Part shown: piece after piece, positions 39,479 through 39,591 of the stretch
How positions within the stretch are numbered: position 1 is the first letter of the stretch
Layout: each line of letters starts with the position of its first letter
Source: Squatina squatina
Taxonomy: Eukaryota
DNA: 54,779 nucleotides
Reading direction: 5' to 3'
Assembly: GCA_031763465.1 (NCBI GenBank)
Contig: JARFOE010000080.1
Span: 8,978,117-9,032,895 of the forward strand
Position numbers and translations under genes: made by a program
Notes under the pieces: generated by a model
Database searches by the model: none
What the model was told of the DNA's origin: nothing
The model's input: only the letters and a program-made list of their open reading frames with translations

Positions 39479-39591
39479 CTCTTACACCCAGAATTTCCAC
39501 ACATCAGCACTTTGCTTCCACCACAGCAAATGGTGCAAAAGGACTGGTATCCATCCTGATCATACAAGAACAGAGTCTCCAGGAAGTTGTC
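39479..39591 (-). CDS. DNMT3-family ADD (zinc-finger) domain exon, divergent, DNMT3L-like
   Basis: Acceptor tgtttctttctcaag|gac, donor aagag|gtacag, 113 bp. Translates [38 protein letters not shown]; boundaries match the DNMT3A/B/L exon ending at ..C.R|. Confidence 0.88.

Follow-up and report, generated by a model that had tools for sequence, protein, structure and literature searches.

Comparative analysis of a 54,779-nucleotide stretch of the Squatina squatina genome (hereafter the window; contig JARFOE010000080.1, positions 8,978,117 to 9,032,895) indicates that three coding exons on its minus strand are very probably part of a shark orthologue of tetrapod DNMT3L, as judged from sequence comparison. 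The explanation that best accounts for the evidence as a whole, and which we hold with considerable confidence, is that this orthologue combines an ADD reader with a catalytically dead partner of DNMT3A/B. DNMT3L probably dates back to the origin of jawed vertebrates, and the sequences together with the unrooted trees indicate that the PWWP domain, the target-recognition domain and the motifs for SAM binding and catalysis had been lost before the split between sharks and bony vertebrates.

Shark DNMT3L exons in the window

The coding exon of the ADD domain (39479..39591, minus strand, read from 39591 to 39479) is 113 bp long, with phase 0 at its start and phase 2 at its end, so that its last Arg codon is split. 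It is bordered by a pyrimidine tract and AG acceptor at 39593-39592 and by a GT donor at 39478-39477. The first-pass annotation had described a clean exon here with the D-x-D pair and the zinc-binding cysteines kept; its coordinates and translation proved exact, the strand being minus, and both the D-x-D pair and 4/4 conserved cysteines are present. Searches of the PDB matched this exon to DNMT3L, DNMT3A and DNMT3B at E-values of 7e-12 to 4e-10, and the resulting alignments agree with the DNMT3L and DNMT3A residues that the annotation had cited. The closest relatives of the exon are a 385-aa protein of the whale shark Rhincodon typus (P0001; 95% identity) and a 384-aa protein of the sawshark Pristiophorus japonicus (P0002; 92%), both of which carry the automatic and ambiguous database name 'DNA (cytosine-5)-methyltransferase 3-like'. 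Taken alone, however, the exon is not diagnostic among the DNMT3 families at the sequence level, because its PDB matches to DNMT3L and DNMT3A differ by less than one bit (47.3 and 46.5 bits, respectively) and because it is on average more similar to DNMT3A (65% identity) than to DNMT3B (60%) or tetrapod DNMT3L (58%, maximum 70%). With respect to the residues initially read as DNMT3L-like, the F-L pair of LFLY is indeed diagnostic in the alignment, whereas loss of the CCR cysteine is a weak character that also occurs in a shrew DNMT3B row.

Two further exons were located downstream by tblastn of the window with the whale-shark and sawshark proteins as queries. The penultimate coding exon (35214..35284, minus strand, 71 bp, phase 0 to 2, flanked by AG and GT; E 1e-8 and 1e-9) encodes a degenerate motif VIII region in which a DNMT3L-type WSNIP replaces WGNLP. 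The last coding exon (33757..33886, minus strand; E 1e-15 and 4e-20) starts in phase 2, ends at a TAA stop and encodes a short C-terminus of the DNMT3L type. The ADD exon is thus no isolated fragment, being accompanied by two more exons on the same strand and in compatible phase. An origin of the last exon by fusion of two DNMT3A exons was considered and set aside, the plain loss of two in-frame exons fitting equally well in view of the DNMT3B isoform rows discussed below. Two minisatellites were also noted, one of period 23 within the intron that follows the ADD exon (38969-39205) and one of period 18 at 28193-28577.

The window consists of 39 contigs (median 1253 bp) split by 38 runs of N, mostly of exactly 100 bases, and pieces of at least eight genes are packed into its 55 kb; it is therefore probably a fragmentary, reference-guided scaffold. 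Exons corresponding to residues 1-93 and 132-318 of the whale-shark protein were not matched by tblastn in the 55-kb window and may sit in the N gaps. The shortage of exons would also be expected if the gene, while a true DNMT3L orthologue, were a pseudogene in S. squatina or a relic devoid of a cofactor role in sharks, and the lack of further shark or ray clusters among the matches listed could mean frequent loss. We consider this improbable, given that small contigs joined by N runs readily account for the missing exons, that 3/3 exons have intact splice sites, compatible phases and no internal stop, and that 91 of 103 residues are identical to the sawshark protein (89%) and 87 of 102 to that of the whale shark (85%). 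These figures mark the two proteins as direct orthologues of the window gene, which, to judge by three exons, is putatively intact in S. squatina. The same degree of identity, against at most 56% to tetrapod DNMT3L, excludes contamination of the window by tetrapod DNA.

After the two sharks, the named matches rank tetrapod DNMT3L next, turtle first (best 120 of 430 matches of 211-674 aa). Chondrichthyan DNMT3L-like clusters number two among these best 120 of 430 and none among the best 120 of 2041 longer matches, and many shark and ray proteomes in the same database contribute DNMT3A/B; this scarcity may reflect gene loss, gaps in annotation or the merging of further members into these two clusters.

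Phylogenetic position and shared derived features

For phylogenetic analysis, 47 hand-picked named proteins (2 shark, 16 tetrapod DNMT3L, 14 DNMT3A and 15 DNMT3B, chondrichthyan copies included) were aligned with the window exons, giving 48 rows. The main maximum-likelihood tree (48 rows, 390 columns, LG+C20 PMSF) is unrooted and contains neither an invertebrate nor a cyclostome outgroup, because 118 unnamed matches from a 50%-representative search were left out of the trees. In this tree, the shark sequences and tetrapod DNMT3L form one clade with support of 100/100, the stem of which (~1.0) is longer than the two sub-stems (0.44 and 0.52), and the window exons fall among the shark sequences as sister to the sawshark protein (98/80), in line with the shark origin that the first-pass annotation had judged probable. 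Approximately unbiased (AU) tests, run on a 23-row subset of the 48 rows, reject any union of the shark genes with the DNMT3A (p 1e-8) or DNMT3B (p 6e-38) of chondrichthyans, and likewise with all DNMT3A (p 9e-31) or all DNMT3B (p 4e-30). Since decayed domains may attract each other, the analysis was repeated on the ADD domain only (28 rows, 134 columns); the shark and tetrapod DNMT3L clade was recovered again (100/99) and AU tests rejected two alternatives (p 2e-4 and 4e-7). The shark and the tetrapod DNMT3L branches are both long, and any bias of the model extends to the AU test. These results bear out the earlier suggestions that the exon does not come from a true DNMT3A orthologue, its closer average resemblance to DNMT3A notwithstanding, and that it represents a chondrichthyan orthologue of DNMT3L. 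Full-length DNMT3A and DNMT3B are separate genes in sharks and rays, DNMT3B being present in chimaera as well, and the sawshark has its own DNMT3A (P0353). The DNMT3A and DNMT3B entries of Narcine bancroftii (P0249, P0250 and P0313) list the same contig size of 254.6 Mb, and the two genes may both lie on one fused chromosome in this species.

Residue-level comparison was based on 268 scorable columns in which the two sharks carry the same residue and no other group is empty. The shark residue matches tetrapod DNMT3L only in 20 of these columns, DNMT3A only in 1 and DNMT3B only in 2; the remainder comprises 9 columns in which the DNMT3A/B state is kept, 47 with a shark-only residue, 78 universal columns and 111 that are unclassified. 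Of 29 sites that are conserved in DNMT3A and DNMT3B but altered in tetrapod DNMT3L, 26 are also changed in the sharks, and 14 of these 26 bear the very residue of tetrapod DNMT3L, compared with 2.8 expected under a simple BLOSUM62 null (P 3e-8). Moreover, five deletions, of 4, 3, 16, 8 and ~63 residues, are common to shark and tetrapod DNMT3L.

Conceivably, a copy of DNMT3A or DNMT3B duplicated within the shark lineage could have decayed independently into a DNMT3L look-alike, with convergence and long-branch attraction producing the clade. Such a history would spare several inferred losses in bony fish and would sit comfortably with the average closeness of the ADD exon to DNMT3A rather than to tetrapod DNMT3L, with the columns at which the sharks keep the DNMT3A/B residue and tetrapod DNMT3L has departed from it, and with the largest C-terminal deletion, which is reachable by in-frame exon skipping. 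Indeed, this deletion is weak evidence of orthology at the sequence level and easily reached independently, because 4 of the 15 DNMT3B rows skip the same 63 residues, leaving a spacing of 41 residues, and resemble exon-skipping isoforms. The four further deletions, the 20 residues in common with tetrapod DNMT3L, the excess of identical derived residues and rejection by 4/4 AU tests on the full alignment and 2/2 on the ADD domain nonetheless weigh heavily against independent decay, and we regard it as very improbable. Descent from a common DNMT3L ancestor does require that the gene was additionally lost from ray-finned fish, coelacanth, lungfish and elephant shark, lineages for which Dataset EV1 of a recent survey scores Dnmt3l as absent (PMC7618676).

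The DNMT3B models that skip the 63 residues come from chimaera, zebrafish and two mammals (P0253, P0257, P0304 and P0348), and the site of the skip coincides with the last intron of the shark gene (35214/33886 junction). Tetrapod DNMT3L shares the 41-residue spacing with these isoforms, as if DNMT3L had fixed a skip of the DNMT3B3 type. The inactive DNMT3B3-type isoform is described as serving DNMT3A as an accessory subunit (PMC12876729). It arises by splicing from a gene that is otherwise intact and encodes a PWWP domain and catalytic motifs; in the shark gene, by contrast, the stretch is missing from the genomic sequence itself and the motifs are degenerate.

Domain architecture and decay of the catalytic motifs

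Both shark proteins contain the two ADD families of Pfam (PF17980 and PF21255) and lack PWWP and DNA_methylase, whereas zebrafish DNMT3Aa in the same comparison yields ADD, PWWP and DNA_methylase alike. Of the human proteins in the PDB, DNMT3L is matched by P0001 with 348 bits (residues 48-384), compared with 285 for DNMT3A and 275 for DNMT3B. A check for PWWP had been proposed at the outset, and the domain was found neither in 2/2 shark gene models nor in the fragmentary window, as is the case for DNMT3L: tblastn of the window with four DNMT3A/B queries gave nothing beyond the ADD exon, a six-frame motif scan for PWWP and catalytic motifs, of which the minus-strand matches were listed, gave nothing convincing, and a Pfam scan of open stretches gave no PWWP. 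The apparent absence of PWWP from the shark gene itself is read from two gene models whose N-termini disagree, the first ~45 residues of P0001 and P0002 being unlike each other.

The ADD domain appears well preserved, with 13/13 conserved cysteine columns retained in both shark proteins and the D-x-D pair retained in these and in the window exon. The equivalent residues of DNMT3A, D529 and D531, bind H3K4me0 according to a published study (PMC13031684). In contrast, the methyltransferase fold is degenerate. In both full-length shark proteins, the exons for which are not among the three in the window, the glycines of motif I are gone, the catalytic PCN loop of motif IV is deleted and ENV of motif VI is replaced by VDP or MDP; in the window's own exons, the arginine pair (RxR) of motif VIII and the target-recognition domain are gone, and the C-terminal anchor motifs lie 36 residues apart as against 104 in full-length DNMT3A/B. 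That the orthologue still methylates DNA in the manner of its ancestor, for which a cysteine near motif IV in both shark proteins might be invoked, is so improbable as to be practically dismissed, given these losses, the alignment of that cysteine with a Ser two positions before the catalytic Cys, and the failure of Pfam DNA_methylase to detect either protein even at E up to 1. Thus, orthology to DNMT3L is upheld while the notion of a possibly still catalytic enzyme, raised by the first-pass annotation, is not, because the clade, deletions and residues fit DNMT3L and motifs I, IV, VI and VIII together with the target-recognition domain are lost.

The closest parallel to the shark gene is tetrapod DNMT3L itself (human, PDB 2PV0 and 9PRW; turtle, lizard, caecilian and marsupial), which likewise has ~385 aa, an ADD domain followed by a dead methyltransferase-like domain, no PWWP, the same deletions, a VD-type motif VI, the WSNIP motif and a short C-terminus, although the proteins are just ~44-45% identical. 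The shark proteins differ from it in the shark-only columns and in the DNMT3A/B-like columns, which include Arg at the W258 position and the ADD-loop Val/Gly. DNMT3A and DNMT3B, including those of sharks and rays, resemble shark DNMT3L in the ADD domain (~50-54% identical), in belonging to the same fold family and in an FF helix that is partly ancestral, but differ in possessing PWWP, intact motifs I, IV, VI and VIII and a target-recognition domain.

FF interface and predicted function

Seven contact residues of the human DNMT3L FF interface are named in PMC9307851. In alignment with human DNMT3L, 5/7 are kept in the sharks, as in tetrapod DNMT3L (F261, R265, D294, F301 and E303), and two are changed, W258 being Arg as in DNMT3A/B and H264 being Tyr or Cys; the interface therefore looks intermediate at the sequence level. 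A modelled complex of the sawshark DNMT3A catalytic domain with the DNMT3L C-terminal domain of the same species scored 0.85, compared with 0.51 for the best of 3 controls, with runs sharing at least 97% of contacts, a partner pLDDT of at least 69 and contacts centred on the FF phenylalanines. The mark used for this score is reached by 51/78 solved and 2/108 mismatched microbial pairs and, for eukaryotes, by 71/105 solved and 2/126 mismatched pairs. As a like complex has been solved, the score may reflect memory of the human structure, and it speaks for likeness only. The AlphaFold model of the sawshark protein alone is of moderate quality (mean pLDDT 68.5) and resembles DNMT3L chains (TM 0.67-0.71) more than DNMT3A/B chains (TM at most 0.47), a comparison that is not independent, since a DNMT3L alignment was the input for modelling.

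By analogy with its tetrapod counterparts, it seems likely that shark DNMT3L is a catalytically dead cofactor of DNMT3A/B. Its ADD domain would bind H3 tails unmethylated at K4, as predicted by homology to human DNMT3L, and the dead methyltransferase-like domain would dock on DNMT3A or DNMT3B through the FF helical (phenylalanine) interface, whereupon it could stabilise and stimulate the active enzyme. The likeliest place of action would be the germ line, a role transferred from mammals that we favour by a narrow measure.

Genomic context

In mammals, DNMT3L lies between ICOSLG and AIRE, and the ICOSLG link is echoed by a fused rodent gene model among the matches listed. Neither gene was found among the 449 of 647 window open stretches of at least 40 aa scanned with Pfam in this highly fragmentary scaffold. 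A single-exon CARD ORF (41529-41867, plus strand; best PDB match NOL3/ARC at E 6e-5, then NOD1) stands head-to-head with the DNMT3L exons, where mammals would have AIRE, but it matches CARD and NOL3/NOD1 rather than the AIRE-type HSR family and was ruled out as AIRE. Likewise, an Ig exon (21116-21475, plus strand) was ruled out as ICOSLG, being an exon of nectin-3 (PDB E 2e-29); the likely transmembrane/cytoplasmic exon of the same gene is at 24610-25299 (plus strand).

The remaining neighbours comprise a long single-exon IRS-family ORF with a PTB domain identified by Pfam (3364-6423, minus strand), which we take to be IRS2-like; a disrupted DDE_Tnp_4 (Harbinger-type) transposase that follows closely on the downstream side of the last DNMT3L exon (30805-31662, plus strand); a cytochrome c-like fragment that adjoins an N gap and is either a gene or a retrocopy (43216-43395, minus strand; Pfam E 8e-10); coding exons of GJA8/connexin 50 (45787-46983, minus strand) and BCL9 (48969-51395, minus strand), both by Pfam; and weak Pfam matches to Thioredoxin_12 and Thioredoxin_14 (52152-52352 and 54526-54711, plus strand), which we assume to be UGGT domains and hence UGGT-like exons. 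Such neighbours show linkage at best, not adjacency. UGGT2, BCL9, GJA8, NECTIN3, IRS2 and much of human 21q presumably share chicken/turtle chromosome 1, and the 355- and 337-Mb contigs that carry the two turtle DNMT3L clusters are taken by us as chromosome 1; the neighbours fit this linkage, though they are no test of it.

Implications for the history of DNMT3L

Shark DNMT3L is a further member of a known family, two shark proteins of which were already present in automatic annotation. An early-vertebrate origin of DNMT3L is said to have been suggested by de Mendoza et al. in 2021. Elsewhere, published work states that Dnmt3l was not found in cartilaginous fish, the elephant shark being the sole chondrichthyan sampled in this 2025 survey (PMC7618676), that DNMT3L is of amniote origin, as inferred from annotations (PMC7814119), that Dnmt3l was lost in fish (PMC12191198), and that two dnmt3 genes are present in shark, a lamprey model clustering with DNMT3L being mentioned in passing with data not shown (PMC6976628). 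In the searched literature on DNMT3L in cartilaginous fish and vertebrate evolution, mostly main texts as distinct from supplements that could list shark genes, no shark DNMT3L was reported, and the present finding contradicts the current dating of the gene to land vertebrates only, as published in those texts. Dataset EV1 of the 2025 survey also scores DNMT3B as absent in elephant shark (PMC7618676). A Callorhinchus DNMT3B (P0253) is present in the database and groups with DNMT3B in our tree, contrary to that score, and absences in this dataset may be annotation gaps.

Mammalian imprinting and the silencing of transposons in the germ line both depend centrally on DNMT3L, whose origin is used to date those systems. 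A dead DNMT3L in sharks implies that the gene arose no later than the ancestor of jawed vertebrates, that its absences among fish reflect losses and that catalytic death long predates imprinting. We further entertain, as a tentative and on balance doubtful conjecture, that sharks run DNMT3L-assisted germ-line methylation against transposons together with PIWIL4, TEX15 and SPIN1, all three of which are scored as present in elephant shark in Dataset EV1 (PMC7618676). If this were true, the central machinery of de novo methylation in the mammalian germ line would go back to the earliest jawed vertebrates. DNMT3L would then have arisen as a fixed, dead paralogue resembling DNMT3B3, at the time of the genome duplications of early vertebrates or before them, and the shark protein would preserve an intermediate FF interface. 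Shark DNMT3L furthermore offers an outgroup protein for asking what the original function of DNMT3L was.
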